The notes under the pieces are model-generated. The model worked only from the letters and a program-made list of their open reading frames with translations. It was not told where the DNA came from and made no database searches. A program made the position numbers and the translations under genes. Shown here one piece after another: positions 6,501-20,255 of a stretch of DNA of 24,488 nt (positions are counted from its first letter, which is position 1; each line of letters begins with the position of its first letter). Source of the stretch: Vulcanimicrobiota bacterium (GTDB taxonomy: Bacteria; Vulcanimicrobiota; Vulcanimicrobiia; Vulcanimicrobiales; Vulcanimicrobiaceae); contig CAWGBN010000004.1 in NCBI GenBank assembly GCA_963820825.1, forward strand, positions 1-24,488, in the 5' to 3' direction.

Positions 6501-6700
6501 GTCAAGTGTTGCATCTCGCTGACGTGCTATGGCTAGCGCTTCAATCAGAACCGGTCGACGGCGAACGCCCCGAGTTGCTCGCGATGCCCGATAGGGAAGC
6601 CGTTCGGTCGCGCGCGCGGCGAGACTTCGCGACCGGCGCCGCATTCGTCGCCGGCCTTGCCGCGGCCGCATGCTATCTGATTTGGAGGAAACGCTCGTGA
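3555..6700 (+). CDS. FAD-linked oxidase with 4Fe-4S and CCG domains (GlcD/GlcF- or YdiJ-like fusion); N-terminal half heavily frameshifted
   Basis: ALYATDASNY, RGGGTSLAG, GPDPATH...TLGGMIGNNSCG, RRVSGY, YGHFGQGCIH, SGEHGDG, MNPGK, CVGVGKC...MCPSY, CLACKGCKGECP, LCCGRP, EPSC, HCHH, CCGMAG, GFSCREQ. About 9 frame switches between ~3800 and ~5075. The stretch 5129-6700 is intact. Confidence 0.88.
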
Positions 6701-7689
6701 ATCGAGTCGCCGTCGTTACCGGTGCGTCGGCTGGTGTCGGCCGGGCCGTCGTTCGAGAGTACGCCCGTATGGGGTTCGACGTGGGTCTGATCGCACGCGG
6801 CACGGAGGGGTTAGCGGCCGCCCAGCGCGAGGTAGAGGAACTCGGACGTCGAGCCGTCGCGGTCTCGGCCGACGTCGCCGACGACGCGGCGGTCGAGCGC
6901 GCCGCCGAGACGGTCGAGCGCGAGCTCGGGCCCATCGATGTGTGGACGAACGTCGCGTTTTCCAACGTATTCGCCGAGTTTAAAGATCTAACGCCGCAGG
7001 AGTACCGGCGGATCACCGAGGTGTCGTATCTCGGCTTCGTGCACGGCACGATGTCCGCGATGAGACGAATGCTGCCACGCGACCGCGGTACGATCGTGCA
7101 GATCGGCTCGGCGCTGGCCTATCGCAGCATTCCGCTCCAGGCCGCGTATTGCGGTGCGAAGTCCGCCATCCGGGGATTTACCGACTCGATCCGCTGCGAG
7201 CTCGTCCATCAGAGGAGTAAGGTGAAGATCACGATGGCGATCCTGCCGGCCGTCAACACTCCGCAGTTCTCGTGGTGCAAGTCAAAGCTTCCGCGCAAGG
7301 CGCAGCCGGTGCCCCCGATCTTCCAACCCGAAGTTATCGCCCGCGCGGTGGGCTGGCTCGTCGATCATCCGAATCGGCGCGAACTGCGGATCGGGCTTTC
7401 CAGTATCAACGCGCTCGTCGTACAAAGCGTCTTCCCCGGCCTCGCGGACAAGTTGCTCGGCAAGAGCGGCTATTCGTCGCAGCAGTACGACGGCAGCAGC
7501 GATCCGGACCGTCCAAACAACCTGTGGGAGCCGCTCCCCGGCGATTGGGGAGCGCATGGCGATTTCGACAGTCGCGCTCGCAGGTGGAGCCCGCAACTCG
7601 TGCTGACCACCCATCCGTTCATCGCCGCCGCGGCCGCGCTCGCCATTGCGGTAGGAACGTCCATCGGCTTGCAAAGGGCGTTACGCTAG
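6697..7689 (+). CDS. Short-chain dehydrogenase/reductase (SDR) with hydrophobic C-tail
   Basis: TGASAGVG cofactor motif, catalytic S...YCGAK (YxxxK), P.VNTPQF. GTG 6697 has SD GGAGG (6684-6688) and overlaps the upstream TGA. Confidence 0.9.
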   Translation: MNRVAVVTGASAGVGRAVVREYARMGFDVGLIARGTEGLAAAQREVEELGRRAVAVSADVADDAAVERAAETVERELGPIDVWTNVAFSNVFAEFKDLTPQEYRRITEVSYLGFVHGTMSAMRRMLPRDRGTIVQIGSALAYRSIPLQAAYCGAKSAIRGFTDSIRCELVHQRSKVKITMAILPAVNTPQFSWCKSKLPRKAQPVPPIFQPEVIARAVGWLVDHPNRRELRIGLSSINALVVQSVFPGLADKLLGKSGYSSQQYDGSSDPDRPNNLWEPLPGDWGAHGDFDSRARRWSPQLVLTTHPFIAAAAALAIAVGTSIGLQRALR

Positions 7690-8520
7690 AAAATGGTCCA
7701 ACGCTTCCCGGCTCTCGGTAACGATCGCTTCCAGATCGCCATCGTAAAGCGAGTCTGGCACATTTTCCGAGAAAATCTCCAGTATCCACGGTCCGCCGTA
7801 CGCCGCCTCGCGAACGCCCGCGACGAATGGCGCGAAGTCGAGCGATCCTTTCCCGACCGGAAGGCGATCGAGAAACGAGCGCGGGCGCCGGTAGTCGGAA
7901 ACCTGCACGAGAAAGATCCGCCCGGCGCAACGCGCCAAGCGCCTGCGCAGGTCTGCTTGTCCGGCCAGATTCCAAATGTCGGCGCAGATCCCAAGCGCTG
8001 GTTCGCCGACCGCCGCCACCAAATCGAGGGCGTCCTCGAGGTTCCAAATAAACGAGTCCTCGTTCATCGCGATGGGATGCAACGGCTCCAGTGCCAAACG
8101 TACGCCCAGCGCGCGCGCGCGCGCCGCAAGGGTCCGGTAGCCTTCGACCGTCTGAGCGAAAGCGCTATCGACGTCGCCCCCCGAAGCGATGCCGGTATTC
8201 AGCACGAACGCCGTGTCGGGCAGCTCCGGAGCGCACGTTTCCAAAAGCTCCGCGAACGCCTTGAGGCGCTGCTGGAACGCCGCCGGCTCGGGCTGCATAT
8301 GCGTTGGAAAGAGCGCGTGTACGTCGGCCTGAAACGACGAGACTTTCAGGCCGCACCGCCTCGGAAACCGCAGCTGTTCCCGCCGATGTCGCGGATCGTT
8401 CGACAGCTTTTTCTCCCAGATTTCTATCGCACCGGCGCCGAGAGCGGCATACCGCTCGACGTCTTCCTCGAAGCTCCACGGCAGCGTGGTGACCTCACTC
8501 ACTCCAAACGTCCAACTCAT
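7681..8520 (-). CDS. Sugar phosphate isomerase/epimerase (xylose isomerase-like TIM barrel)
   Basis: AIEIW, LALEPLHP, GICADIWN, VQVSD, R...GKG.LDF, YGGPWILEIFS metal-ligand pattern. ATG 8520 was chosen because upstream starts run into the next gene. Confidence 0.85.
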   Translation of the reverse strand: MSWTFGVSEVTTLPWSFEEDVERYAALGAGAIEIWEKKLSNDPRHRREQLRFPRRCGLKVSSFQADVHALFPTHMQPEPAAFQQRLKAFAELLETCAPELPDTAFVLNTGIASGGDVDSAFAQTVEGYRTLAARARALGVRLALEPLHPIAMNEDSFIWNLEDALDLVAAVGEPALGICADIWNLAGQADLRRRLARCAGRIFLVQVSDYRRPRSFLDRLPVGKGSLDFAPFVAGVREAAYGGPWILEIFSENVPDSLYDGDLEAIVTESREALDHFLA

Positions 8521-8539
8521 AACGGAGGTAATTCTACCC

Positions 8540-9358
8540 ATGGCGACTGACGTCAAGACCGCCGTCCACAACGACGACTTGCGCGTCGATCTTCGCGGCC
8601 GGACGGCAATCGTCACCGGGGCGTCGGCGGGCATTGGGAGTGCGATCGCGACTCGCTTCGCGCGATCGGGCGCCCACGTCTTCGTCGACTACCCGAGCGA
8701 AGCCGAGCGCGGTCACGCCGACGAGGTGCGTGCCGCGATCGAGCGCGACGGCGGCACGTGCGAACTCGTACGAGCGGACGTCGCTCAAGAGGCGGGCGCT
8801 TCTGCGCTCGTTCGGGCGGCGGTCGAGCGCCGCGGTGGCATTGACATTTTGATCAACAACGCCGGTATCGAGGAGAGTCATTCGGTCGTCGAGATGCCGC
8901 TCGCCGTGTGGAATCGGATTATTGCCGTTAATCTGACCGGCACATTTCTCTGCGCGCGGGCCGCCGCGCAAGCGATGATCGGGCGTAATCGGGGAGGTCG
9001 TATCATCAACGTCTCCTCGGTTCACGAGGATTTGGCCATGCCGAAGAACTCCGCGTACTGCGCGAGCAAGGGCGGGGTCCGCATGTTCATGCGCACTCTC
9101 GCCCTCGAGCTGGCGACGTATGGCATCACCGTGAACGATATCGCCCCCGGGGCGGTCGCCACGCGGATCAATCGCCAAGTACGGCAGAAGCCGCACGAGC
9201 GTACCGAGCTGCTCGAAGAGATTCCGCTGGGGCGCGTCGCCGATCCCAATGAAATCGCCGCACTTGCGTGCTACCTCGCGTCCGACGCTGCCGGCTATGT
9301 GACCGGTGCAACGTTCGTGATTGACGGCGGTCTGATGCGATACACAAAGGGCCTGTGA
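8540..9358 (+). CDS. SDR, glucose 1-dehydrogenase-like
   Basis: TGASAGIG, INNAGIE, NVSSVHE, YCASKGG, IAPGAVAT.IN, IPLGR, YVTGATFVIDGG. SD GGAGG at 8524-8528. Confidence 0.85.
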   Translation: MATDVKTAVHNDDLRVDLRGRTAIVTGASAGIGSAIATRFARSGAHVFVDYPSEAERGHADEVRAAIERDGGTCELVRADVAQEAGASALVRAAVERRGGIDILINNAGIEESHSVVEMPLAVWNRIIAVNLTGTFLCARAAAQAMIGRNRGGRIINVSSVHEDLAMPKNSAYCASKGGVRMFMRTLALELATYGITVNDIAPGAVATRINRQVRQKPHERTELLEEIPLGRVADPNEIAALACYLASDAAGYVTGATFVIDGGLMRYTKGL

Positions 9359-11772
9359 GCCGCCGACCCTCGCCCCTGCTCCAGCCCGACGGCTCGTACG
9401 TGGTCGCCGCCGACGCACTCGCCGTCGGCTCGACGCTCGGCGGACCGACGCTCGCCGTGAAGCTGCTTGCGAACGGCGCGATAGAACACGTGCACTCCAT
9501 TCGCTCCGGCAGAGATCTCGTGCGCGGGTTCGACGTGCATCACTGGGACGCGCGGACCGGCGTCCGGCTCGCGCGCGGGCCGCGCGGATCGTTCGAGCTG
9601 AAGCCCGATCGCCAGGTGCACCGCTACGTGCTCGCCGGCACCGTCCACGTAGAAAGTACGACCTTCGTTCTCGCGGGCGAACCCGGCGACGGCACTCTTC
9701 CCGATGCGTGCTATGTTTTGATTTGCGCGCGCAACGAGGGGCACCGCGCCATCGAGCTGGCCACAGTTGCGGTGACCCGATTGAAGTTTTCCTCCTCCGA
9801 GCGGATCGACGCCCGCTTTTCGTCTCGGGCGCACGGTCTGGTCGTCTGGGACCGCGATGCCGGCGCGGCGCGCGCCGTGCTGGCCTCCGAGGCGCCCCAG
9901 TCGTGGGCGGTGACGGCGGATCACGCACGCGTCGTCGGCAGACGGTGGTACGGAGCGTTTGAACGTAATGTCGACGGCGGGGGCCCGGATCCGCTCGGTA
10001 TACTTCACCTGCAAGCGAAGCTCGACCCGGGCGCGACACATACGCTCTGGTTTGCCATCGTCGAGCTCGCCGAAGGCGAGGCCTCGATCGACGCCGCCGC
10101 CGCGGCCCTTCCGCCCGGCCGCGACGCGCTCGGGAGTACGGCGGCGTACTACCGCTCGAAGCTCGCGTTGACGCAGATGCTTTCTCCTTTCATTGAAGCC
10201 GATCGGGGCGTATATTGGGCGAAGGCTAACATGCTGCGCGTGCTTCGCGAAACGCCGACCGGGCGCGGTTTTACGAACGATCCCGGGCGTTCCAACAACT
10301 GCGTAGGACGAGATAGCTTCTGGTTCGTTCACGGCTCTGACTGGCTCGATCCATCATTCTCTCGCGAACTACTGCGCGGTTTTGCCGACAGGCAAGAAGA
10401 CGACGGAAAGATCGTCGAGTACTACGATCTCCGTACCGGCGAAACTTCGGACGACGGACTAAACGTGAACGACAACACGGCCCTCTTCGTCCTCGCGGTT
10501 TGGCACCACGCATTTGCGACCGGCGATTCCGGCTTTCTCCACGAGTTCTATGAGCCCGCTCGTCGTGCGGTCGAGCAGCTCCTGGCAAACCGCAACGATC
10601 GAGGCCTCGTGTGGTGCGATGCCGATGGGACCGGCGCTCGCGGAATCGTCGGTTGGCGCAACATCATTAAAGATTACCGTATCTCGGGTGCGACCACGGA
10701 GCTCAACAGCGAGACCTACGCGGCTTTGGGGAAACTCGCGGAGCTCGCACGAATGCTCGGCCGCGACGACGACGCGAAGCGCTACGACCTCGAAGCGAAG
10801 GCGCTGCGCGCGTCCATCGAAAAGCATTTGCGCAATCCGGACAACGGTCTGTATTATCTCACCATTGACGTCGACGGACGTCCGCGCAGTGAAATTAGCG
10901 CCGACCTCGTTTTCCCGGTGATTTTCGGCGTCGCCGACGAGGAAACCAGCGTGCGGATTGTGGAACGTCTGCGCGCGCAAGACTTCTGGACCGAGGCGGG
11001 CGTGCGAACGGTACCCCGCGACGCGCCCGAGTACGGTCCCACGCAGGGCGACGGCCTTCTCGGCGGCGTGTGGGTCGCGGTGACGTTCTGGTACGCGTTC
11101 GCCGCATCGCGGTTCGCGCCGGACGTCATGCTGGAAGCACTGCGGCAGACTTTTGCGCATTACGCGCGCGATCCCAGAGCGACCAATACCGTTCCGGGTC
11201 AGTTTTCCGAGTGGTTACACGGCGAAACGCTCGTCAACGAGGGCATGATGCTCTCGCCGTGGTTTGCGCCGCGTTACATCTGGGCCGCAATCGAAGGGGC
11301 GTGCGGCCTAACGCCGTCGCCGCGCGGTATGAGTCTTCATCCGAACCTGCCGCCGGATTGGCTCTGGCTCGGGGTGCGCAACGTACCACTGCGCGGAGAG
11401 CCCGTCTCGTGGTTCGTGGTACATCGGCACGGGAGACAACGCCTCTTCGCTACGCGCGCAGTCGAGACCGACGCACCGCTCGAAGTTTACGAACGCGACG
11501 TCACTGACGACGTCTCCGTCGAGGGTCATGACGTGGCGACGATCGCGTTCGCTCGCGACGACGGCGTCGTACTGCTCTTGGCGAACCGGTCGGAGCACAC
11601 CATAACGGTGGCCGTACGGCGGGAGGGCGCGCTGCGCCGCCATACGGTCCGCCGCGTTTTCGAGAGTCTGAACGGCGGCTGGCGGAAGGACCTGCAGCGG
11701 GAGGACGATGCCTTTGCCACGGCGATCGCGAGCAATCAGTACGCTTTAGTGGAGTTTGACAAGCGGGATTAG
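9355..11772 (+). CDS. Six-hairpin (alpha/alpha)6 glycoside hydrolase (amylo-alpha-1,6-glucosidase/GH63-MGH1-like)
   Basis: 805 aa. GRDSFW, QEDDGKI.E, D.TALFV, GW, E.NS..Y.AL, DFWT..GVRT, GGVW....W, GQFSEW catalytic-barrel pattern. GTGA overlap with the SDR stop. Confidence 0.75.
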   Translation: MSRRPSPLLQPDGSYVVAADALAVGSTLGGPTLAVKLLANGAIEHVHSIRSGRDLVRGFDVHHWDARTGVRLARGPRGSFELKPDRQVHRYVLAGTVHVESTTFVLAGEPGDGTLPDACYVLICARNEGHRAIELATVAVTRLKFSSSERIDARFSSRAHGLVVWDRDAGAARAVLASEAPQSWAVTADHARVVGRRWYGAFERNVDGGGPDPLGILHLQAKLDPGATHTLWFAIVELAEGEASIDAAAAALPPGRDALGSTAAYYRSKLALTQMLSPFIEADRGVYWAKANMLRVLRETPTGRGFTNDPGRSNNCVGRDSFWFVHGSDWLDPSFSRELLRGFADRQEDDGKIVEYYDLRTGETSDDGLNVNDNTALFVLAVWHHAFATGDSGFLHEFYEPARRAVEQLLANRNDRGLVWCDADGTGARGIVGWRNIIKDYRISGATTELNSETYAALGKLAELARMLGRDDDAKRYDLEAKALRASIEKHLRNPDNGLYYLTIDVDGRPRSEISADLVFPVIFGVADEETSVRIVERLRAQDFWTEAGVRTVPRDAPEYGPTQGDGLLGGVWVAVTFWYAFAASRFAPDVMLEALRQTFAHYARDPRATNTVPGQFSEWLHGETLVNEGMMLSPWFAPRYIWAAIEGACGLTPSPRGMSLHPNLPPDWLWLGVRNVPLRGEPVSWFVVHRHGRQRLFATRAVETDAPLEVYERDVTDDVSVEGHDVATIAFARDDGVVLLLANRSEHTITVAVRREGALRRHTVRRVFESLNGGWRKDLQREDDAFATAIASNQYALVEFDKRD

Positions 11773-11827
11773 CCTGTCGGCGACGATGCGGCGGCGGCGG
11801 GAACAACCAACCCAAAGCCGACGTTTC

Positions 11828-12492
11828 TCACGATGAGCGAAGCCATCGGAACGACCGCTCGACGAATGCTTTTGCATCGGTGTCGACACAATCGCCGTGC
11901 GCGACAATGAGTTTATCGAAGTCCCATGAGAGGATCCCTCGCAGCGACTCTCGGCCCATGCGACGACGGCGCTTTCCGAGGAAAGAAAGGCGTAGATCGC
12001 GTGGCGCGCCGCCCTGCAGTATTCCGCCCCAACGCAGGAGCACGTTACGCAGTGGGCGCCGGGGCATAGGCTGAAAGTTTTGAATGAAGTCTGCCATAAT
12101 GAGCGTGCGCGATCGACGATGAAAGAACTCGATCTCGGAAAGCACGGCGCTGCCCCGAAAGGCTATTTGGTCGATGCTCTCTCTCCCACGCTGGCGGCGG
12201 TTCGTCACCGAGCGCCGAGGCTTTCCAGACCCGCGCGCGCGGGAAGAAGTCGGCCCACAATTTTAAACGCCAGTCGTGCAGCGGGGTCGGCGAAACGAGA
12301 TGGGTTACGGGACCGACCTCTTCTACGCGCACCGCCTGCTCGAACGTCGCGGCGACTGGTGAATAGATCCAGAGCGATCCGTCGTAGAGCTTAATCACCA
12401 CCATCCGGGTTGGATATGGCATGCCGAAGAAACGTACGGTCGGTCCGTCGGCTATCCAAAAGATCGTCGCCAAAGCTTCGCAGAACGTCCAT
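11828..12492 (-). CDS. DUF4336-family protein (metallo-hydrolase-like fold); 2 frameshifts
   Basis: MDVLRSFGDD|IWIADGPTVRFFGMPYPTRMVVIKL.DGSLWIYSP...HLVSPTPLH...|E.EFFHRRSRTLIMADFIQN...WDFDKLIVAHG. Shifts at ~12462 (A-run) and ~12183 (CT repeat). An alternative in-frame ATG lies at 12573. Confidence 0.8.
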
Positions 12493-12748
12493 TGAGTTAC
12501 AAGTTGGATGAAATCGAGCGAGACCTTGCACCGGCGCTAACGTCGAGCGGTTGCGTGGCGACGGTCGCTCCATTGTTGTCGAGGTCGTACCCGCGTAGCT
12601 CGAGCCACCCGGGGCGCTCCGGCGAGTCGGTGCCCCGGAGTTGACCCGCGGGAGTGCCTCACCCTTATACCGAAGCCAAATCGTGTATTTCAAACAAGTG
12701 CGCTCGGCTGATCTTCCTTTATGGAGGTAGCCGGAGAGGGGTTCTCGA

Positions 12749-13108
12749 GTGAGAAAGTTCGTGAGTGGGTTGGTTGCGTTGACCGTGTTGACGACCGGTT
12801 TGGCCTTCGCTGCAGATGTGGGGCCCAAGGCGGACGTCGCCGCCGTGCGCGCGGCGTCGAACCGGGAGTCTCCGAGCAGACACGTGGACGCGGTGCACGT
12901 GGTCGGCGACTATGCGTTGCTCGATTGGTACGATCAGGAATCGGGAGGGTATGCGCTGTACAAGCGCACCTCGGGCGAACGATGGAAACAGATCGACTTC
13001 AGCGGCGGCGTGACCAATGTGAGTCTTATGGCCCAGCATGGCGTGCCGACTTCGATCGGGCACAAGCTTTGCTTGGGATGGGGCAGCGCGAAGCCCTGTC
13101 AACTCTGA
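12749..13108 (+). CDS. Secreted hypothetical protein (119 aa)
   Basis: SD-like GGAGAGGG, Sec signal peptide MRKFVSGLVALTVLTTGLAFA, C-terminal Cys pair. Confidence 0.75.
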   Translation: MRKFVSGLVALTVLTTGLAFAADVGPKADVAAVRAASNRESPSRHVDAVHVVGDYALLDWYDQESGGYALYKRTSGERWKQIDFSGGVTNVSLMAQHGVPTSIGHKLCLGWGSAKPCQL

Positions 13109-13174
13109 CGCGCACGCTTTTCCCCCCAAAAGTGGTAACGAACTGTGAAAAGACTCGTCTTTGAGGGCCTTGCC

Positions 13175-13561
13175 ATGAAAGCTGTACTCGTTCTCTGTGC
13201 TATAGCGGCTTCGTCGTTCTGGAGCCCGTCGCCGGCTTACGCAGGCGGCTCCGCGGTGCACCACGCTGACGGCGTTATAACGCACGTCGGGCGCGGGAAT
13301 CAAGGCACCGAATTTTACATCAAAATCAGCGGCGTTCCCGTACGGTTCTGGTTCGACAACGCCTCCAACTTCGCAATCAACGGACATCAGCCTAATTGCC
13401 AAGGAACGGCCGGCTTCGGCGATTTTACAAAAGGCACCATGCCCGGCTGCCCGGGCTGGGCTCCCGTCACCATCGGGAGAACCCGCGTTCGCGTTTCATA
13501 TCGCGAGGTCAAATCCGAGGGAAGCACCCTCCTCGTTGCGAGTTCGCTGCAGACGATATAA
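13175..13561 (+). CDS. Secreted hypothetical protein (128 aa, beta-rich)
   Basis: Signal peptide MKAVLVLCAIAASSFWSPSPAYA, SD-like GAGGG, Cys pair (NCQG...GCPG), alternating beta-strand pattern. Confidence 0.7.
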   Translation: MKAVLVLCAIAASSFWSPSPAYAGGSAVHHADGVITHVGRGNQGTEFYIKISGVPVRFWFDNASNFAINGHQPNCQGTAGFGDFTKGTMPGCPGWAPVTIGRTRVRVSYREVKSEGSTLLVASSLQTI

Positions 13562-13628: not shown

Positions 13629-15201
13629 ATGCCCTACCGCGTCTTTGTCTCGTACGCTCACAACGACGACGCTAAGCCTATAGACGGCGGCGGCGAGGGT
13701 TTCGTTAGCGCGCTCATGCGGCGCGTCAGCCACTACTTTGTCGTAGACGGGCCGCCCGTTCCCGAGTTCTTCCGCGATCTGTACGATATCCGCAAGAGTC
13801 GCGCGTACAAACCGATCATTGACGAGGGGCTCGAGACGTGCGATGCGTTGATGATCGTCCTCTCTCGCAATTGGGTCGCCTCGACCTACTGCAACCGCGA
13901 GCTAGAAACGTTTAGGAGTTTCCGCTCTCGCGAGAGCAAAAGTACCTTTCAGCAGCGGCTGATCGTCGTCTCGAAGCAATTCGTTTCCGAAGACGACCTT
14001 CCGGAGTTGCTGAAGGACAATGCCGGCTTCAGCTTTCAAGAAAGCCATAAATTCTCACGCGGAGCACGCCGAGCGGCGCGGCTGGTACGACGAGTACTTC
14101 GCCGAAGGCCAGCGCGAGCAATCGAAAGAGTTTAATTCGGCCACCCGCGAGCTGACGGCCGACCTGCGCGAGCGAACGGAAGAGCAGCTCGGCAAGGGAT
14201 CGAGCGAAAAGCGTCAGGCAGCGCAGAATCCGGCGCCGGATCGTTCCGACGCACTCTCTCGCCACGAGCGCGTCGTCTTCTTGGCGGCACCTGCCAGCGA
14301 TATGAAGGATGCCTACGATCGGCTCGTCGAGGAGCTGCAAGGGCGCGGCTATCGAGCCGTTCCGGATCCCTCCGCAAAAATGCCCAGCGACTCGACCGCC
14401 GCCGATTTTATCGAGAATGCGTTGCGCGATTCCGAGATTTCGATTCACCTGATCGGCGAAAAGGCCGGCCCGGCGCCCGAAGAGCAGGAGCCTATTCTGC
14501 CGCTCCAGCTCCGGCTCGCAGCCGAGCGTGCCGCCTCGGCGCCCGAAGGCGCGACTTTCTGCCGCATCATTTGGGCACCTCGAGCGCTTGCCGCTAACGG
14601 CGCGGCGGCCAACCCTCGCGATCCGCTCGAGGTGGTCAAGCGATTCGGCGCGATCGACGGCGATAAGATTGAAGGGTGCGAGCTCGGCAACTTCGTCGAG
14701 TTCGTCGTCAAGCATCTCGTGGATCATCCGCCGAAACGGCCGGAGGCGGAGCTGCGGCATTACAGTGCGCTCGCGCCAAATGCAAAGGTGTACGTTTGGG
14801 CACCCAAAGAGGATGCCGATTACGCGCTCGAAATTGCCGAGGCGCTCGACAAATGCAGCACGAGGCCGATTCCGACGATCTTCGACAACCGGGACGAGAC
14901 CTCAAACGCTTGGCATGAGAAACAACTGGCGACCTGCGATGCGGTGCTGATTCCGTGGGCCGCCGCAAAGCCCGGTTGGGTATTCAGCAATAGCGATCAG
15001 CTGCGGGATTGGCACGAGCTCGGACGCGACAAACCGTTTTTGCAGCGCTGCGTCGTTACCGGACCGCCGAACGCCGCCGATAAGACCTCGTTCAGACGGT
15101 TTCCGCCCCGCGAGTCCATCGACGTCGTGCTCGATCTCACGCAGAACGAAAAGCCGTCGCCTGACGACCTGAACCCCCTCTTTCCGGAGACGGACGCATA
15201 G
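13629..15201 (+). CDS. TIR-domain protein with two further TIR-like (DUF4062/SEFIR-like) domains; one frameshift at ~14054 (about 523 aa when joined)
   Basis: TIR1: VFVSYAHND...FFRD...I...L..CDALMIVLSRNWVASTYCNREL (catalytic-position Glu). Domain 2: VFLAAPASD...RLVEEL..RGY...ALRDSEISIHLIG. Domain 3: VYVWAPKED...A.AL...LATCDAVLIPW....GWV. Confidence 0.8.
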
Positions 15202-18200
15202 TGGAGCTCTCGCGCGAGCATCCCTTCCCCGGGCTTCGGCCATTTGATTTTCGCGATCGCGAGTTCTTTTTCGGTCGCGAAAAGCATACGTACGCGCTCT
15301 ACCGGCTCCTCGATCGAAGTCGCTTTGTCGCAGTCGTCGGCAGCTCGGGGAGCGGCAAGTCATCCTTGGTTCGCGCCGGTTTGCTGCCACTGCTGGCGGA
15401 GGAGCTTGACGAAGCGGGTCTCCCGATCTGGCGATCGGCTACGTTTCATCCCGGCGACCATCCGATGCGGGCGCTGCGCGACGCACTCGTCGCGCTCGCG
15501 GCAGGCGCCGATCTCGAGACGGACGTTCTCGTAAAAGACGTCGAGACCGCGCTCGGGACCTCGAGCTTCGGCTTATCGAAGGCGGTCGCCGAGATTCCCG
15601 GGCTTTCGAACCGAAAGGTTTTGCTCGTCGTCGATCAATTCGAAGAGCTCTTTCGCTACGAAGGAAGCCGCGACGAGGCAATCGATTTCGTGCAGAGGCT
15701 CCTGGAAGCCACCCGAAGCTACTCGAGCACGATTCACGTTCTCATCACGATGCGCTCGGACTTCATCGGCGATTGCGCGCAATTTCAGCGGTTGCCGGAG
15801 GCCGTCAGCCGTTCGCAGTTTTTAGTGCCGGCGCTCGACCGCGAGCAGCGCGAAGAGGTCATCTTAAAGCCGATCGCGCTCGGCGAAGCCGAAATAGAGC
15901 CGCTCTTGGTCGAGCGCCTGCTCAACGACGGGGGCGCCGAAATGGACCAGCTCCCGGTCTTGCAGCACTGTCTGTTGCGGCTATGGGAGTGCGCCGTGCT
16001 CCTCGATGGAACGCGTCGGCTCGCGGAAAAAGAGTACGACGCCATCGGCGGCATCGCGCACGCCCTGTCGCAGCATGCCGATGAGATCGTGCGGGAGCTC
16101 GGCAAGCCGCTCGAGCCGGCGGTGGAGGCGGTCTTCCGCGCGCTAAGCGAGACGGATGCCGACGGACGAGCGACGCGCCGCGCGCTTTCCTTTTCAAAAC
16201 TATTGGCCGAAACCGGCATTCCCGAAGCCGAACTGCGCCGCGTCGTCGAGCGCTTCAGTGCCGACGACTGCTCGTTCCTCGTCTTGTCTACTGCGGCCCT
16301 GACGGCGGAGACGCAGGTGGACGTCGCGCACGAAGCGCTGCTGAGAAACTGGATGAAGATCAGCGCCCCGCTCACCGTCGAAGACGGGCGCCGCGAAAGT
16401 GGATGGCTCGCGGCCGAGGCCGCGGACGGGTGGGAATATCGCGCACTCCTGAGTCTGGTCAAATCGGGTTCGGCGGGCGCAACGGTCACGCTGCCGCTCG
16501 AACAGGTCGAGCGGCGATACGAGTGGTGGAGTTCGCGCAAACGCACCGCAACGTGGGCGCAGCGCTACGGCGGCGGCTATGAACTCGTCGAAAAGCTCTT
16601 CGACGACAGCCGCGCGGAGCTGGCAAAACAACAAGAACGCCAACGGCAGGAGGCGCAGGCAGCGCGCGAACGCGAAGCGGTAGCGGAGAAGGCTCGCAGC
16701 GACGAAGTGGTGCGCCGCGTTCAAGAAGAGTTCGCGCGAGTCCGCGCTCGACGCACGCTCATCGCCGCCGTCGCCATGGCCGTGCTTGCGCTCGTCGCGC
16801 TCGGCAGCACGGCCTGGGCGCTCCTAAAGGACCACCAACTGACGGTCGCTAACGACGCCGCGGCCACCTTAAACGAGAGGCTCTCTCGCGCCAACACTCA
16901 GCTCCAGCAGCTCAACGGCCAAAAAGACGCGAACATCAAAGTCAAGACCGCGCAAGCGCGCGTTCTCGCCGCGCAGAGAGACAAACTCACAGCCCAAAAG
17001 AATCAGCTGGCGCAGGCCGGTGCGAAGATCATGTTGGAAAAAGCGACGCTCGCCACGGTAAACTCGAAGCTGACGTCCGCGGTCGCCCAGCTGGCGGCGA
17101 CGAACAAACGCTCGATCATCCTCTGGGAGGAGCAGCTCACGCACTCGCAGGCCTCCGGAAAGCGGATGCTCACGGCGGACGTGCAAGAGCATCCGAACGA
17201 CATCTCCGCTCGCGTTGCCCTCGGCGTATATAACGAGGTGACCGGCGACCTGGCAGGGGCGCAGCAGCAGTTCCAATCGGCGCACAGCCCGAACGATGCG
17301 TTCGTAGACGCGTCGCTCTGCGACGTGATCGCGGCTCGGGCGGTTGCTCCCTCCAACAAATACTCGGCGAGCGAGAAAAAGAGCTTGCTCCAGAAAGCGC
17401 TCGAGGACTGCAATACAGCGCTGCGGCTATCGCCGAACATGACCTACGCGCTGCGTTCGCGCGCCGACGTACAATACGATCTCAGCCTGTTACCCGGGGG
17501 CGATCGTTATCGGGCGGGCGCCGTGGGCAGCGTGCAGCGTGCGCTCGCGATCGACCCGACCGAAGAGGTCAGTTTGCGCTATATGTGCGAGCTGGAGTTC
17601 ACGGCGAAAGATTACGATGCCGCAATCGCCTATTGCACGCGCGCCGCAAAGGCTTATCATAGATCGTCCCCAGCGCAGCCGGTTGCGTACATCGGCCTCG
17701 GGAGGGCGGAGATCGACAAAGATGAGTATGCCGCCGCCATCGCAGCCTTGACGGCCGCGATCGAGATCGATAACAAGTACTACGATGCTTATTACTTCAG
17801 AGCGCAGGCCAAAGCCATCAGCGGCATCGATTTGCTCGGCGCCGAGCGAGACCTAGCGTACGTCCTAAAGAATGACGCGCAAGCGTACCGCACCGGCCAG
17901 GGTTTCTACAACGCGCATTACTGGCTGGGTGTGGCCGAAGCAAAGAACGGCGATCCGGGAGCCGTTGCCGATCTCACCGCAGCGCTGCGAAGTAAACCTA
18001 ACGACTATTGGAGCACGTTTTGGCTTGGCAAGGCGCTGATACAGCAGCAGAGTTGGCAGGCCGCGATCGCCGCCATGTCCCACACCCACGAGTGGAATAC
18101 CTACTACTATTTGGCTTATGCGAAGCTGCGCGCGGGTGATTATCGCGGTGCGCGCCCGGACGCTCAACGGTACATAAGTCAAAATCCAAGTCGTGGCGAC

Positions 18201-19094
18201 GGCTACCTGCTGCTGGCGAGAATCGAGCTCAACTCCGGCGACTGGAGCGATGCTTCGACGAATTCGCGCAAAGCCTGGTCGCTTCTTTCAACGAATGAAG
18301 ACAAGAAGGTCGCGCAAGTAGTGGCCGACGACGTTGATGCCATTGCCAAGAAGGATTTGGGCCCGCGATTCGCCGCCGATTCAAGCGCGATTCTCGCCAA
18401 TCCCCACGACGCCCGCGCGTACTCCGATCGCGGTCGCGTGTACGAAACGATCGACGATCGGCAGTGGGCGCTTTTCGACTACGGCTCGGCGATTGCCGCA
18501 AACTCGTCCGACGCTTACGCCTTCGCCGGTAAATGCCGAATAGAAGGGGAGAACGGAATGATTGACGCGGCGATGACCGATTGCGACAAGGCGGCCGAGC
18601 TCGACCCAAGCCTCGCTTCGGCATTGCGACAGCGCGCGATAATCAACGTCACGCGCGTCGGGGACAGCAATTTGAAGCAGCTCGCAGCCGCAAGCCGCGA
18701 CGCCAACCGTGCCGTCACGCTGGAGCCGCAGGTGGCGAGCAGCTTCTCCACGCGTTGCTTCGTCTACTACTCGGCGAGCCGCTATGAGGAAGCTATCTCC
18801 GATTGCAGCGCGGCACTCGCGCGCGATCCGCAGCTCTCGTTCCCGCACTTTTGGCGAGCCAACGCACGTTTGAACACCGGCGACTACGTTGGCGGCTTGA
18901 CGGACGTGCAAACGTACTTGAAAGCGAACCCGTCCAGCGCGGACGCGTATCTGCTGCAGGCAAGGCTCGAGCTTCGGCTCGGGAGCCGGGCACAAGCGCG
19001 GGCGTCTGCCGAGACGGCATTGCGCTACTACAAAGCGGCGAACGATCAAGTAGGGCAGGCGACAGCTCAAAAGTTGCTCGACGACATCGGATGA
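15201..19094 (+). CDS. nSTAND1-type STAND NTPase + single TM helix + coiled coil + TPR repeats (1297 aa)
   Basis: PFPGLRPF..DREFFFGRE, Walker A GSSGSGKSS(LVRAGLLP), Walker B LLVVDQFEELF, ITMRSDF, LPVLQHCL..LW, GGI..AL..HA, DVAHEALLRNW. Hydrophobic LIAAVAMAVLALVALGSTAWALL, followed by many TPR-like units (AY..RG/A..D...A...DP). Confidence 0.88.
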   Translation: MELSREHPFPGLRPFDFRDREFFFGREKHTYALYRLLDRSRFVAVVGSSGSGKSSLVRAGLLPLLAEELDEAGLPIWRSATFHPGDHPMRALRDALVALAAGADLETDVLVKDVETALGTSSFGLSKAVAEIPGLSNRKVLLVVDQFEELFRYEGSRDEAIDFVQRLLEATRSYSSTIHVLITMRSDFIGDCAQFQRLPEAVSRSQFLVPALDREQREEVILKPIALGEAEIEPLLVERLLNDGGAEMDQLPVLQHCLLRLWECAVLLDGTRRLAEKEYDAIGGIAHALSQHADEIVRELGKPLEPAVEAVFRALSETDADGRATRRALSFSKLLAETGIPEAELRRVVERFSADDCSFLVLSTAALTAETQVDVAHEALLRNWMKISAPLTVEDGRRESGWLAAEAADGWEYRALLSLVKSGSAGATVTLPLEQVERRYEWWSSRKRTATWAQRYGGGYELVEKLFDDSRAELAKQQERQRQEAQAAREREAVAEKARSDEVVRRVQEEFARVRARRTLIAAVAMAVLALVALGSTAWALLKDHQLTVANDAAATLNERLSRANTQLQQLNGQKDANIKVKTAQARVLAAQRDKLTAQKNQLAQAGAKIMLEKATLATVNSKLTSAVAQLAATNKRSIILWEEQLTHSQASGKRMLTADVQEHPNDISARVALGVYNEVTGDLAGAQQQFQSAHSPNDAFVDASLCDVIAARAVAPSNKYSASEKKSLLQKALEDCNTALRLSPNMTYALRSRADVQYDLSLLPGGDRYRAGAVGSVQRALAIDPTEEVSLRYMCELEFTAKDYDAAIAYCTRAAKAYHRSSPAQPVAYIGLGRAEIDKDEYAAAIAALTAAIEIDNKYYDAYYFRAQAKAISGIDLLGAERDLAYVLKNDAQAYRTGQGFYNAHYWLGVAEAKNGDPGAVADLTAALRSKPNDYWSTFWLGKALIQQQSWQAAIAAMSHTHEWNTYYYLAYAKLRAGDYRGARPDAQRYISQNPSRGDGYLLLARIELNSGDWSDASTNSRKAWSLLSTNEDKKVAQVVADDVDAIAKKDLGPRFAADSSAILANPHDARAYSDRGRVYETIDDRQWALFDYGSAIAANSSDAYAFAGKCRIEGENGMIDAAMTDCDKAAELDPSLASALRQRAIINVTRVGDSNLKQLAAASRDANRAVTLEPQVASSFSTRCFVYYSASRYEEAISDCSAALARDPQLSFPHFWRANARLNTGDYVGGLTDVQTYLKANPSSADAYLLQARLELRLGSRAQARASAETALRYYKAANDQVGQATAQKLLDDIG

Positions 19095-19162: not shown

Positions 19163-20143
19163 CTATCGATTCGTAACGCTTGCGCCCGTCACCCGATGGG
19201 TTTTCCCTTCTTGACCGCGATGGTCTCCGCCGTATGTCGCTGCGAAGCCTTGTCGCCAACTCGGGTATTTGAGCGTCCAGCCGAGTTCTCGTTTTGCCTT
19301 TGCGTTCGAAACGCCGCGCGCCTCGGTCGACATAACGACGAGAGCTTCACCTGCCAGGAGACGCGCCAGTAGGCGAGGGAAGCGAAGGGGCGGCGGTGCT
19401 CCGAGGATCTTTGCTAGCTCCGGCAACCATACGCGCGTGGGGGCCGGTTCGTCGTCAGCGATATTGTAGATCGCGGGGCCTTTGCGCTCGAGCGCGAGCA
19501 CGGTTGCGGCGGCGGCGTCGTCAACATGAATCCACGACGAGACACCTCCGCCATCGCCGACAATCGGCCACTTACGAGCGCGAACCGCAGCACCAATCTT
19601 GTCAAGGGGATCGCCATAAAAGCTGCCGTACCGAAGTGCGATTCCACCCGCATCCGTGACCGCCTTATCCAGGTGCTCCAGAGCGGCCACAGTCTCGCGC
19701 ATCGCAGCAGGCGGACTCGGATCGAGGGGGTCGTCCTCGCTTTTGACCGGCCCACCCTTGCGTTCGTAGCGAATAGGGGCGTAACTCTGAGCGACTATCC
19801 GGCGCACTCCCGCGTTGCGCGCCGCGGCAACAAGGATGTCGATCCCCTCGGTTCTCAATCTGTTGGTTTGGGCAAAGCTGCGATCGAAGTTCCTAAAGTC
19901 TAGTAATTCTGCAAGCGACGTCGCTTCGTAGACGACTGCATCGGGCTGGTTGGCGGCAATTGCCGTGCGTACGGCGTCGCGATCCAGTGCGTCGAGCACG
20001 ATCGGCTGCGCACCGAGCGCTCGCAGCGTCTTGGCTCTTGCCGACGAACGGGCGCTACCAATCACGTCGTGCCCTCGTTCACGAAGTTGCGGGACGAGGC
20101 TACCGCCAATGGCGCCGCTAGCTCCTACGGCCAAGACTCGCAT
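19163..20143 (-). CDS. NAD(P)-dependent oxidoreductase, epimerase/dehydratase (atypical SDR) family
   Basis: MRVLAVGASGAIG Rossmann motif, TNRLRTEG, VAQS, LRYGSFYG, SWIHVDDAA, YNIADDEP, SNAKAKRELGW...YPSWRQG. SD GGAGG upstream of ATG 20143. Confidence 0.9.
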   Translation of the reverse strand: MRVLAVGASGAIGGSLVPQLRERGHDVIGSARSSARAKTLRALGAQPIVLDALDRDAVRTAIAANQPDAVVYEATSLAELLDFRNFDRSFAQTNRLRTEGIDILVAAARNAGVRRIVAQSYAPIRYERKGGPVKSEDDPLDPSPPAAMRETVAALEHLDKAVTDAGGIALRYGSFYGDPLDKIGAAVRARKWPIVGDGGGVSSWIHVDDAAAATVLALERKGPAIYNIADDEPAPTRVWLPELAKILGAPPPLRFPRLLARLLAGEALVVMSTEARGVSNAKAKRELGWTLKYPSWRQGFAATYGGDHRGQEGKTHRVTGASVTNR

Positions 20144-20165
20144 AACTAATCTTCCTCCTGGCCCC

Positions 20166-20255
20166 TTACGCCCAAGTCGCCTGGACCGCAAAAGAGCCAA
20201 ACTCCGCTACCGCATCAGCAACGTTGCGCTCGCACGGATTAGCTTTTGAGACCAT
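20166..20255 (-). CDS. Possible 29-aa small ORF (MVSKANPCERNVADAVAEFGSFAVQATWA)
   Basis: Strong SD GGAAGGAGA 5 nt before the ATG. It ends 22 nt before the oxidoreductase start. Confidence 0.3.
   Translation of the reverse strand: MVSKANPCERNVADAVAEFGSFAVQATWA

Follow-up and report, generated by a model that had tools for sequence, protein, structure and literature searches.

Organization of the locus

The window, by which we mean the whole 24,488-nt stretch analysed here, contains two adjoining genes with the following features.

13629..15201, + strand: gene 1, TIR protein with two more TIR-like domains, about 523 aa as a single frame
13629..14054, + strand: domain 1, canonical TIR (Pfam TIR_2, PF13676)
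13899..13901, + strand: codon of Glu91 in the motif S..W...C..EL, presumed catalytic Glu of the TIR
14055..14058, + strand: frame break, four bases against a single Tyr codon in intact homologues (tblastn)
14263..14739, + strand: domain 2, DUF4062/NIR-like fold (weak Pfam DUF4062 match; fold matches of the P0121 model)
14506..14508, + strand: invariant Gln codon of domain 2, at the position that would match the catalytic Glu of DUF4062 NADases
14782..15198, + strand: domain 3, degenerate copy of domain 2 with a flavodoxin-like fold (hhalign and model)
15199..15203, + strand: TAGTG, one base common to the gene 1 stop and the gene 2 start
15201..19094, + strand: gene 2, 1297 aa, with nSTAND1 NTPase, one TM helix, stalk and TPR ectodomain
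15222..16436, + strand: nSTAND1 NTPase module (Pfam PF20703, residues 8-412; a second search gave the same place)
15339..15365, + strand: Walker A, GSSGSGKSS (G47, S49, G50, G52, K53, S54 and S55 invariant in 50 sequences)
15630..15647, + strand: Walker B, VDQFEE (V144 to E149 invariant in 50 sequences)
16755..16823, + strand: predicted transmembrane helix, residues 519-541 (RVRARR directly before; Kyte-Doolittle 2.36)
16824..17120, + strand: stalk rich in A, L, Q, T and K, with few Pro or Gly
17121..19091, + strand: predicted extracytoplasmic TPR-rich domain (Pfam TPR families and four conserved Cys pairs)

The one-base stop/start overlap claimed in the initial annotation is real: the TAG of gene 1 occupies 15199-15201 and the GTG of gene 2 15201-15203, with GGAG upstream at 15186-15189. 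Neighbours of the pair in the window are metabolic genes. No third gene for an outer-membrane protein was found there, the gene downstream of gene 2 being a convergent epimerase (19163-20200).

Domains of the gene 1 protein

Gene 1 had been described as a multi-TIR effector. One canonical TIR stands; by fold matches and hhalign the other two domains are only TIR-like. The Pfam check for TIR_2 came out above cut-off (E 4.4e-9, 37.3 bits vs. 28). For structural comparison we used the model of an intact homologue, P0121 (pLDDT 87.2), whose residues 1-188 resemble the SPARTA TIR (Z 13.6) and the TIRs of RPV1 and RUN1 (Z 13.1 and 12.7). Glu91, which we take from the TIR NADase literature to be the catalytic residue, is kept in at least 90% of 83 gene-1 homologues. 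Domain 1, with this Glu retained, appears to be the swappable output of the module and is a candidate NADase.

The anticipated DUF4062 match (PF13271) was found in domain 2, but in the window it is weak (E 1.3e-3, 19.3 bits, below the cut-off of 24.7); many gene-1 homologues pass the cut-off, one of them (L052) at 39.8 bits. P0121 model residues 212-369 resemble the SPARTA TIR (Z 14.1), DNPH1 (Z 12.9) and MilB/BcmB (Z ∼12). The catalytic Glu of DUF4062/NIR domains (E87 in Eva01, E97 in KpSwz) appears to be absent from domain 2, and a Gln that is invariant in A1, A3 and A5 stands at the corresponding position. We infer this correspondence from spacing and motif rather than superposition: F217 to Q293 in P0121 spans 76 residues, equal to F11 to E87 in Eva01 as given in the portion of the source compared here. 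With an invariant Gln there, domain 2 probably serves as adaptor or regulator and not as the NADase.

Domain 3 aligned to domain 2 with an hhalign E value of 4.6e-5. Its model is confident (pLDDT 94.7), and its fold matches are non-discriminating (receiver, Z 11.0; deoxyribosyltransferase, Z 10.7; TIR, Z 9.7). The equivalog-domain cut-off of FxsC (NCBIfam NF040588) was missed, at 28.4 bits vs. 130.

NTPase and predicted topology of the gene 2 protein

Gene 2 opens at the PFPGL motif of nSTAND1 (residue 8), as had been noted; the Pfam match from this residue is strong (E 5.2e-89, 300 bits vs. a cut-off of 27.1), and no effector is fused N-terminally to the NTPase. Walker A lies at residue 36-62 in 118 of the 120 best homologues, which are all those where the pattern was found; of the remaining pair, P0034 is incomplete as a protein. 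Pfam gave no match to ParA, CbiA or AAA_31 in gene 2, and NACHT reached only 25.3 bits, under its cut-off. Superstructure-forming repeats follow at the C-terminus, TPR in gene 2 and WD40 or TPR in relatives.

The basic patch RVRARR and the single hydrophobic helix that had been placed after the NTPase were both borne out, the helix as a prediction from hydropathy. Residues 519-541 form the sole strongly hydrophobic stretch of gene 2, the next best scoring 1.19 on the Kyte-Doolittle scale. A hydrophobic segment was found in 114 of the 120 best gene-2 homologues, and among 198 pooled relatives 186 have a single helix after the NTPase, at a fixed distance from Walker A, whatever domain comes next. 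Charge around the helix is strongly biased in these 186 relatives: K+R averages 5.6 on the N-terminal (NTPase) flank against 2.8 on the C-terminal one. In 174 the N-terminal flank has the more K+R, in 10 the two are level, and in 2 it has less. Periplasm-type domains following the helix in relatives include TonB_C (L044) and the murein endopeptidase Peptidase_M74 (L077), and polytopic regions occur in some.

Two parts of the earlier description of this region were revised. The coiled coil of ∼90 aa could not be confirmed: 21% of 2000 shuffles reach the 3.5-residue (heptad) periodicity seen across residues 545-640; this stalk diverges fastest of all parts of gene 2 among orthologues. TPRs are indeed present beyond it, between residues of about 792 and 1290, but the Pfam families cover about 500 aa rather than the ∼650 aa proposed. 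The ectodomain evolves faster than the NTPase among orthologues. All eight Cys of its four pairs (707/737, 796/812, 1112/1128 and 1186/1202) are retained in 9 of 10 orthologues, even where ectodomain identity falls to about 40%. Such pairs are conserved in the C-terminal part only; Cys 264, on the cytoplasmic side, varies. The ectodomain is probably held by disulfides.

Genomic context points the same way. In 42 loci with a close downstream ORF, the next gene encodes an OMP_b-brl_2 barrel in 17, all of them Bacteroidota and perhaps reflecting one single event, and a Phenol_MetA_deg protein in 4 more. The proposal that the sensor lies outside the inner membrane thus gains comparative support from the helix, the positive-inside bias, the TonB_C and Peptidase_M74 domains, the Cys pairs and the neighbouring barrels. 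By hydropathy, charge bias and context, gene 2 appears to encode a type-II single-pass protein, with the NTPase inside and the TPR sensor outside.

Pairing, swapping and distribution

A survey of gene neighbourhoods showed that the two genes co-occur in other genomes. A gene-1 homologue lies directly upstream of the nSTAND1 gene in 76 of 78 assessable loci, under 11 phylum-level labels; the count comprises family-HMM matches plus two loci (L026 and L077) that carry gene 1 in other frames. In 75 of 79 loci a + strand ORF of at least 80 aa, mostly about 350-750 aa, ends near the nSTAND1 start, its stop within 25 nt of that start in 59. TIR_2 matched 64 of these 75 upstream ORFs and DUF4062 alone 4 more, while family HMMs for domains 2 and 3 (D2 and D3) each found 73. 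One fused form, a TIR-D2-D3-nSTAND1 protein (P0296), was also found.

The TIR position can be taken or extended by other domains. A cyclase takes the place of domain 1 in two loci (L009 and L014) and is added to it in two others (L037 and L072), and kinase, CHAT, EAD1, ParA-like domains and extra TIRs occur on the constant D2-D3 module. In both loci lacking gene 1 (L034 and L061), the place directly upstream is taken by a divergent gene for a GAF-HNOBA-cyclase (E 2e-58). From these sequence comparisons, D2 and D3, TIR-like domains of the DUF4062/NIR class without the Glu, would be the constant part that accompanies the NTPase. The cyclase, kinase and EAD1 variants would suit signalling as well as suicide.

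The D2-D3 profile matched 5470 representative proteins at E ≤1e-3, and NTPase relatives number more than 3300. Among relatives of the window's genome the module is patchy, present in 4 of 31 genomes with the window's own counted. Two cultured hosts, Chryseosolibacter histidini PWU4 (L075) and Tistlia consotensis USBA 355 (L014, with the cyclase variant), make tests of the module practical.

Proposed function and alternatives

The best explanation of the whole, which we hold with reasonable though not high confidence, is that the two genes are translationally coupled and form a module of the STAND/NLR-like "conflict system" kind with a membrane-spanning receptor. We infer its binding, activation, output chemistry and biological trigger as follows. 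A ligand or disturbance beyond the cytoplasmic membrane would alter the gene 2 ectodomain, and the change would travel via the single helix to the NTPase. NTPase modules would then swap nucleotide and oligomerise beneath the membrane, gathering cytoplasmic gene 1 TIR proteins and turning them on. Activated TIRs would cleave NAD+, causing depletion or yielding a signal molecule.

A more far-reaching proposal, which we offer tentatively, is that this is a widespread trans-envelope innate-immune receptor, whose periplasmic repeats would watch an outer-membrane protein or the wall and send a signal across the inner membrane through one helix; this signal would drive STAND oligomerisation, activating a docked TIR (elsewhere a cyclase, kinase or caspase). 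To our knowledge, every bacterial STAND/NLR-like sensor characterised so far reads cytoplasmic signals; this module, unlike them, appears to read signals outside the cytoplasmic membrane. If the proposal is true, it would be the first bacterial NLR-like system shown to detect attack before the cytoplasm is reached, such as a phage adsorbing or injecting, or a predator or toxin breaching the cell, and a functional counterpart of Toll-like receptor signalling made from NLR parts. The module would raise the questions of which signals bacteria pick up in the periplasm or at the outer membrane, and of how one helix transmits a signal to an oligomerising ATPase.

Rather unlikely, in our estimate, but the strongest competitor, is an ordinary envelope or cell-surface signalling pathway that is neither immune nor suicidal. 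Its outside domain would keep watch on the cell wall or on an outer-membrane protein, with logic like that of FecA-FecR or TonB-type trans-envelope signalling, and the STAND switch would activate a second-messenger enzyme, producing a TIR-derived ADPR isomer or, in cyclase variants, cNMP. Substitution or supplementation of the TIR by cyclase fits such a pathway, as do the cyclase gene beside the loci lacking gene 1, the outer-membrane barrel genes directly downstream in 17 (+4) of 42 loci, the TonB_C ectodomain and the metabolic neighbours in the window. It is likewise favoured by the scarcity of defence genes nearby. No clear defence-island signal was seen among 118 flanking ORFs from 21 loci: six matched PADLOC at E ≤1e-8, a count taken without a control set, and at least two of the six look generic (kinase, PolA). 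As for the pair itself, the proposed check against PADLOC (library dated 2023) returned no full system and no model for it, the only matches being one of P-loop length (mad3, residues 40-68) and a weak one to PDC-S66. Against ordinary envelope signalling stand the NADase-type Glu retained by the TIR, and the swapping of CHAT and EAD1, the fast-evolving sensors and the patchy distribution, which are hallmarks of conflict systems in the portions of Kaur et al. 2020 and 2021 drawn on here; nSTAND1 was itself defined in conflict systems, according to the parts of PMC8195603 used.

A conflict module might also be dead in this particular genome. Gene 1 in the window is split over two frames (ORFs 13629-14135 and 14020-15201), and a genuine frameshift would make it a pseudogene. 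The extra base is present in the window sequence, and no gene-1 protein above 87% identity was found beside the gene-2 relative P0001, which is 97% identical. We nevertheless consider a pseudogene improbable. Read as one frame, gene 1 would have about the length of the intact homologue P0121, of 523 aa, which is 95% and 87% identical to the two pieces. The base inserted at 14056 probably reflects a fault in the assembly, since contigs from two public runs, X1 and X5, do not have it. The X1 contig has no other difference from the window over 457 nt, but it is thin (depth 2.8) and may stem from the same sample; that of X5, from a relative, has a depth of 44. All conserved residues are retained in both halves of gene 1. 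A second gene in the window, FAD-oxidase_C, is split as well (4609-5235 / 5129-6700), consistent with an indel-prone assembly.

Very improbable is a wholly cytoplasmic gene 2 protein, an Avs-like sensor with a separately encoded effector whose hydrophobic stretch is no membrane helix: this would accord with the cytoplasmic location of the characterised bacterial STAND sensors known to us, but it is opposed by the fixed position of the segment in 186 of 198 relatives, the charge bias of 174 to 2, the polytopic, TonB_C or murein-endopeptidase regions that follow the helix, and the confinement of conserved Cys pairs to the C-terminal part while Cys 264 on the NTPase side varies.

Comparison with known systems

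In the preferred reading, a two-gene conflict module with a membrane-spanning receptor, the pair is tripartite in its logic like Avs and bNACHT systems, with a repeat sensor, a STAND NTPase and an effector. It differs from them in its NTPase clade, in having the effector split off, and in its one helix and large, predicted outside domain. Characterised Avs/bNACHT members sense cytoplasmic phage proteins. Animal Toll-like receptors are similar in having a repeat ectodomain, one membrane helix and TIR output inside. A TLR carries its TIR on the receptor chain itself and has an outward-facing N-terminus; in the present pair the N-terminus would be inside, with a STAND NTPase in between and the TIR supplied by a protein of its own. 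The Toll-receptor-like topology that had been suggested therefore holds only as a likeness of layout, and the separate TIR chain and the inward N-terminus make the analogy a loose one.

Other systems share single elements. The EACC1 system is a membrane-linked two-gene conflict system with swappable parts; in the parts of Kaur et al. 2020 compared, its 5' gene encodes a small single-TM EACC1 protein and its 3' gene a caspase fusion, neither of which was found in the window. DGR-diversified STAND "antigen sensors" (Dore et al., PNAS 2024, PMC10907252) are described, in the sections consulted, as nSTAND1 or NACHT proteins whose C-terminal part is a sensor; some have a TM and a predicted periplasmic sensor. 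Their sensor has a CLec/FGE fold that a retroelement diversifies; neither DGR nor CLec was found in the window, and one relative (P0090) carries PF03781. The DUF4062/NIR NADase effectors Swarozyc, Avs2-NIR, Vulcan, Vesta and Evangelion (bioRxiv 2026.05.01.722283, 2026.09.04.749371 and 2026.06.25.731849) share the DUF4062 signature with many homologues of domain 2, and the fold neighbours TIR, DNPH1 and CMP N-glycosidases with the model of this domain. As described in the portions of those preprints used, they need a catalytic Glu (E97, E108, E98, E103 or E87), whereas domain 2 has Gln at the position that would correspond. This invariant Gln suggests that a TIR-like fold was reused for docking or regulation, which bears on the 2026 finding of DUF4062/NIR domains as NADases.

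Two sets of systems are closer. Statements on each refer to the parts of the sources compared here. The nSTAND1-centred counter-invader systems (Kaur, Iyer, Burroughs and Aravind, eLife 2021, PMC8195603) have the same PF20703 NTPase clade, C-terminal repeat sensors, and TIR, caspase, trypsin or kinase effectors, and the EAD1 variant links gene 1 to their effector network. Their effectors are fused N-terminally or recruited by Death-like/EAD adaptors; here the effector is separate, with a constant twin TIR-like module, and a helix follows the NTPase. Those parts of the paper hold no description that we found of the gene 1/gene 2 dyad.

The PCTM and TIR-ParA "receptor-like" systems (bioRxiv 10.64898/2026.10.19.760177) likewise have the cytoplasmic NTPase at the N-terminus of a type-II single-pass protein. 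Directly upstream lies a gene for the effector, and an active TIR is joined to one or more inactive ones. Their periplasmic domain is variable (TPR, pentapeptide or peptidoglycan binders), that of gene 2 being TPR, and sensing of periplasmic or peptidoglycan disturbance has been proposed for them as it is here. Their switch is ParA, sometimes grafted onto nSTAND1, whereas gene 2 is without ParA; their ParA-less versions are direct TIR-STAND fusions, unlike the separate gene 1. A ParA-like N-terminus on the gene-1 architecture (P0291) echoes TIR-ParA. The novelty of the membrane layout was thus overstated in the initial annotation: bacterial STAND proteins that bear a TM, as well as receptor-like NTPases of type II preceded by an effector gene, have already been described computationally, in the parts of these sources compared, and the same layout of upstream effector gene and type-II single-TM receptor, its topology predicted, occurs at this locus.

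The gene pair in the window

The window is one whole contig of a 2.98-Mb genome (9 contigs, 85% complete), and the pair is carried by these ORFs:

13629-14135, + strand: first piece of gene 1, 168 aa, TIR_2 match (E 4.4e-9)
14020-15201, + strand: second piece of gene 1, 393 aa, DUF4062 match under the cut-off (E 1.3e-3)
15201-19094, + strand: gene 2, the nSTAND1 receptor, 1297 aa

The last base of the TAG that ends ORF 14020-15201 is the first base of the GTG that opens ORF 15201-19094 on the same strand, and GGAG stands 12 nt 5' of that GTG. Residues 8-412 of gene 2 match Pfam nSTAND1 (E 5.2e-89, 300 bits against a cut-off of 27.1), and many TPR families match residues 792-1290. Walker A (G47-S55) and Walker B (V144-E149) showed no variation across 50 aligned relatives. 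The sole strongly hydrophobic stretch is at residues 519-541 (Kyte-Doolittle 2.36; runner-up 1.19), with RVRARR just before it. A coiled coil had been proposed for the stalk that follows; heptad periodicity over residues 545-640 was no higher than in shuffles and does not support it. PADLOC gave P-loop-length matches alone for gene 2 and no model for it. A profile of the NTPase searched against PDB sequences also gave P-loop matches alone (UvrA, ABC proteins), leaving nSTAND1 with no solved relative by sequence beyond the P-loop. A complex prediction that paired A2 (gene-2 NTPase, 480 aa) and A3 (second piece of gene 1, 393 aa) scored 0.24 and 0.04, under the 0.32 mark, and speaks neither for nor against binding.

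Just 5' of gene 1 are two small + strand ORFs with signal-peptide-like N-termini, 12749-13108 (119 aa) and 13145-13561 (138 aa). We rejected them as parts of the module; they have no Pfam match and no relative in the loci fetched from other genomes.

Frame break in gene 1

Intact gene-1 homologues (~500-525 aa) follow the first frame to 14054 and the second from ~14059; the closest of them, P0121, a 523-aa protein under the label Candidatus Cybelea sp., is 95% and 87% identical to the two pieces. At the break the window has four bases where intact homologues have one Tyr codon. Contigs covering the region were recovered from two public sequencing runs; of the 11 runs that the DNA-run search listed, none is recorded as RNA. 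That of run X1 (457 nt), at a low depth of 2.8 and possibly from the window's own source sample, lacks one letter at 14056 and is otherwise identical to the window. That of run X5, from a relative (109 differences over 1683 nt, depth 44), lacks the same letter. The simplest reading is that the break at 14056 is an insertion error of the assembly.

Elsewhere in the window a FAD-oxidase_C domain is divided over overlapping + strand ORFs in different frames (4609-5235 and 5129-6700), with Fer4/CCG domains after it. The contig seems to have a further frame break here, consistent with assembly indel errors. ORF 646-1698 (+) has N-terminal and central TPP-enzyme domains with no C-terminal TPP domain reported, and could be one more gene that is truncated or broken in frame.

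Domain anatomy of gene 1

We aligned 83 gene-1 homologues (alignment A1), picked from 64 homologous proteins and 75 upstream ORFs, and folded P0121 on this alignment. The model (mean pLDDT 87.2) has three alpha/beta domains, D1 to D3, among which the matches of a whole-model Foldseek search were muddled. D1 (P0121 residues 1-188) resembles solved TIRs: SPARTA TIR-APAZ (Z 13.6), RPV1 (13.1), RUN1 (12.7), MyD88 (12.3) and AbTir (11.9). Its Glu91, inside an S..W...C..EL motif, is present in at least 90% of A1 sequences.

D2 (residues 212-369) matched the folds of SPARTA TIR (Z 14.1), DNPH1 (Z 12.9) and the CMP N-glycosidases MilB and BcmB (Z ~12), the same set of neighbours that a 2026 preprint gives for DUF4062/NIR. 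A SIR2-like reading of the extra domain was rejected: SIR2 is absent from the 50 best fold matches, and Pfam gives DUF4062. Many gene-1 homologues pass the Pfam cut-off for DUF4062; phmmer of D2 against PDB sequences returned a chance-level match alone (E 0.11). His273, Gln293 and Trp315 are invariant in A1. From the beta-1 aromatic F217 to Gln293 is 76 residues, equal to the spacing from F11 to the putative catalytic E87 of Eva01, as given in a preprint; from this spacing we infer that D2 carries Gln at the catalytic-Glu position of DUF4062 NADases.

D3, modelled alone (pLDDT 94.7), adopts a flavodoxin-like fold of generic type; the fold search could not tell apart receiver (Z 11.0), deoxyribosyltransferase (Z 10.7) and TIR (Z 9.7) folds. 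It is related to D2 (hhalign, E 4.6e-5), a degenerate copy; comparisons with D1 by hhalign were not significant for either D2 (E 0.049) or D3 (E 0.15). In a few homologues, such as that at locus L009, TIR_2 also matches over the D3 region. The description of gene 1 as a multi-TIR effector is right in spirit: one TIR looks active, and it is accompanied by two TIR-like domains that are probably inactive.

Conservation of the pair

A word-indexed search with gene-2 residues 1-640 scored 7999 candidates, of which 3329 were relatives. Of the best 120 homologues, 118 showed the Walker A pattern, every time at residue 36-62, which leaves no room for an N-terminal effector in any of these. A hydrophobic segment follows the NTPase in 114 of the best 120, whatever comes next (TPR, WD40, FGE-sulfatase, Sel1 or nothing recognisable).

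Scanning one genome per species, we obtained 79 loci, which represent the top 80 out of 590 confirmed stretches. Their records fall under 11 phylum-level labels (Pseudomonadota, Desulfobacterota/'Deltaproteobacteria', Eremiobacterota, Acidobacteriota, Cyanobacteriota, Bacteroidota, Verrucomicrobiota, Planctomycetota, Gemmatimonadota, Actinomycetota and Poribacteria), and two are from cultured strains. At 75 of the 79, a + strand ORF of at least 80 aa, mostly ~350-750 aa, ends at the nSTAND1 start; its stop lies no more than 25 nt from the gene-2 start in 59 of the 75, with a 4-nt or 1-nt overlap in 20. Pfam found TIR_2 in 64 of these 75 ORFs and DUF4062 alone in four more. HMMs of the three A1 domains found all three in 66/75, D2 in 73/75 and D3 in 73/75, counts that are partly circular, 33 of the 75 ORFs belonging to A1. 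Six-frame search located gene 1 at L026 and L077 as well, and D1 in another frame at L046, L065 and L074. Leaving out L016, which is cut by a contig end, a gene-1 homologue is present at 76 of 78 assessable loci; the partner gene proposed for the receptor is conserved. At the two exceptions a divergent GAF-HNOBA-adenylate/guanylate cyclase gene (E 2e-58) takes its place, directly 5' of an nSTAND1-TM-WD40 gene:

L034:4444-5925, - strand: GAF-HNOBA-cyclase gene
L061:4459-5934, - strand: GAF-HNOBA-cyclase gene

Gene 1 is patchily distributed in the window's genus, order and class: only four of 31 such genomes, its own included, have a homologue.

At some loci the receptor gene is divided into an NTPase ORF and a TM/WD40 ORF, or duplicated (L080:5947-7170 with 7170-9065; L053:5977-7173; L026). 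The divided genes may result from frame breaks or may be truly split.

A constant module with swapped effectors

At L009 and L014 a cyclase domain stands in the TIR's place with D2 and D3 kept, and L037 and L072 gain one ahead of the gene-1 domains. A D2-D3 profile (A5), searched against 1.84 billion proteins, found 5470 representatives at E<=1e-3, of which 1903 reach E<=1e-30. The module was C-terminal in nearly all of the 150 matches listed, 38 of which, chosen for length, were domain-scanned. Besides or replacing TIR, these 38 have an N-terminal Ser/Thr kinase (eight), a cyclase (3), CHAT (1), EAD1 (1) or a ParA-like domain (1), and some have extra TIR or DUF4062 copies. The gene-1 variants with EAD1, CHAT and ParA-like N-termini are P0271, P0196 and P0291. 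P0304 has its kinase at the C-terminus, after D2-D3, and P0296 is a single-protein TIR-D2-D3-nSTAND1 fusion. The swapped effector domains and the fusion fit a swappable output carried by a constant module that goes with the NTPase. Given the cyclase, kinase and EAD1 variants, a signalling output fits equally well as NAD+ depletion.

Membrane topology and ectodomain

We pooled the window protein, the 120 homologues and the 79 loci, which gave 198 proteins with recognisable Walker A. A segment of Kyte-Doolittle at least 1.8 lies 380-600 residues past Walker A in 186 of them; among the other 12, seven peak at 1.56-1.69, one (P0061) at 0.71, and four are cut or broken. Lys+Arg content is higher on the NTPase-side flank in 174, equal in 10 and lower in 2 (means 5.6 vs 2.8). 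Because the NTPase requires cytoplasmic nucleotide, and with this positive excess on its side, the C-terminal domain of gene 2 should be outside.

Relatives carry varied domains after the helix: TonB_C (L044), murein endopeptidase (L077), WD40, TPR, pYEATS and pentapeptide repeats. In some, more than one additional hydrophobic segment is present there. Eight Cys form four pairs along the ectodomain of the window's gene 2, and in three pairs the spacing is 16 residues. All eight are present in 9 of 10 TPR-type orthologues, even at ~40% ectodomain identity, and one cytoplasmic Cys of gene 2 is variable among these orthologues; the pairs may form disulfides. Divergence is faster in the ectodomain and stalk than in the NTPase (in P0005, 51% vs 82.5% identity). 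The post-helix domains, the Cys pairs and outer-membrane barrel neighbours are independent hints that agree with a C-terminal domain outside.

Judged by comparison across genomes, topology and pairing are well supported; mechanism and biological role we infer. The observation behind the initial annotation, a candidate two-gene trans-membrane NLR-like system, holds, with the coiled coil and the 'multi-TIR' wording to be corrected.

Downstream genes and defence context

Sixty loci extend far enough downstream to show the next gene; in 42 of them a + strand ORF begins no more than 250 nt from the gene-2 end. In 17 of the 42, exclusively Bacteroidota, it encodes an OMP_b-brl_2 outer-membrane barrel, after a gap of a few bases to 80 nt:

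L039, L049, L054, L055, L060-L065, L075, L076, L079, L081-L084: OMP_b-brl_2 gene directly 3' of the nSTAND1 gene

Several of these loci then have one more ORF of ~410 aa with no Pfam match. Four Acidobacteriota loci (L025, L032, L043, L074) have at that place a Phenol_MetA_deg protein, which we take to be a member of Pfam's outer-membrane barrel clan. This suggests a trans-envelope form of the module with three or four genes; the loci behind the barrel counts are interrelated and may represent one or two evolutionary events only. In the window a convergent epimerase gene lies downstream of gene 2, with no outer-membrane barrel gene there.

Other downstream neighbours were noted singly. In Candidatus Cybelea L011, an RHS-repeat/DUF6531 protein gene (10293-11435, +) has a 1-base overlap with the receptor-gene end, and a ThsB-like TIR gene (11625-12914) is further downstream. 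L066:8704-9225 (+) encodes an LprI lysozyme-inhibitor domain protein, L068:6163-7587 (+) a phage tail-sheath-like protein, and L077:9166-12153 (+) a family-A DNA polymerase whose intein bears a LAGLIDADG domain.

PADLOC matched 6 of 118 flanking ORFs, from 21 of 45 full-flank loci and with no control set (ThsB-like TIR, DpdB, kinase, patatin, protease, PolA). In the window, the pair's own neighbours are metabolic genes. On these results a defence-island context cannot be claimed.

Comparison with known systems

The name nSTAND1 comes from Kaur et al. 2021 (PMC8195603). The EACC1 membrane-associated two-gene system (Kaur et al. 2020) was rejected as the identity of our genes, being a different pair. 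Dore et al. 2024 (PMC10907252) predict that the sensor domain of some DGR-diversified STAND targets is periplasmic. The nearest published match is a preprint of October 2026 that deals with ParA-like NTPases (bioRxiv 10.64898/2026.10.19.760177). It presents receptor-like NTPases of type II whose periplasmic domains are TPR, pentapeptide or peptidoglycan-binding and whose effector gene lies upstream, and also TIR-ParA systems, where inactive TIR domains are joined to an active one; ParA, it adds, may be grafted onto nSTAND1. Unlike the TIR-ParA systems, gene 2 is without ParA. A literature search, covering that preprint apart from its supplements, found the TIR-(NIR-like)2 and nSTAND1-TM dyad neither described nor tested. 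The dyad of an nSTAND1-TM receptor and a separate TIR protein is kin of already described receptor-like NTPase systems.
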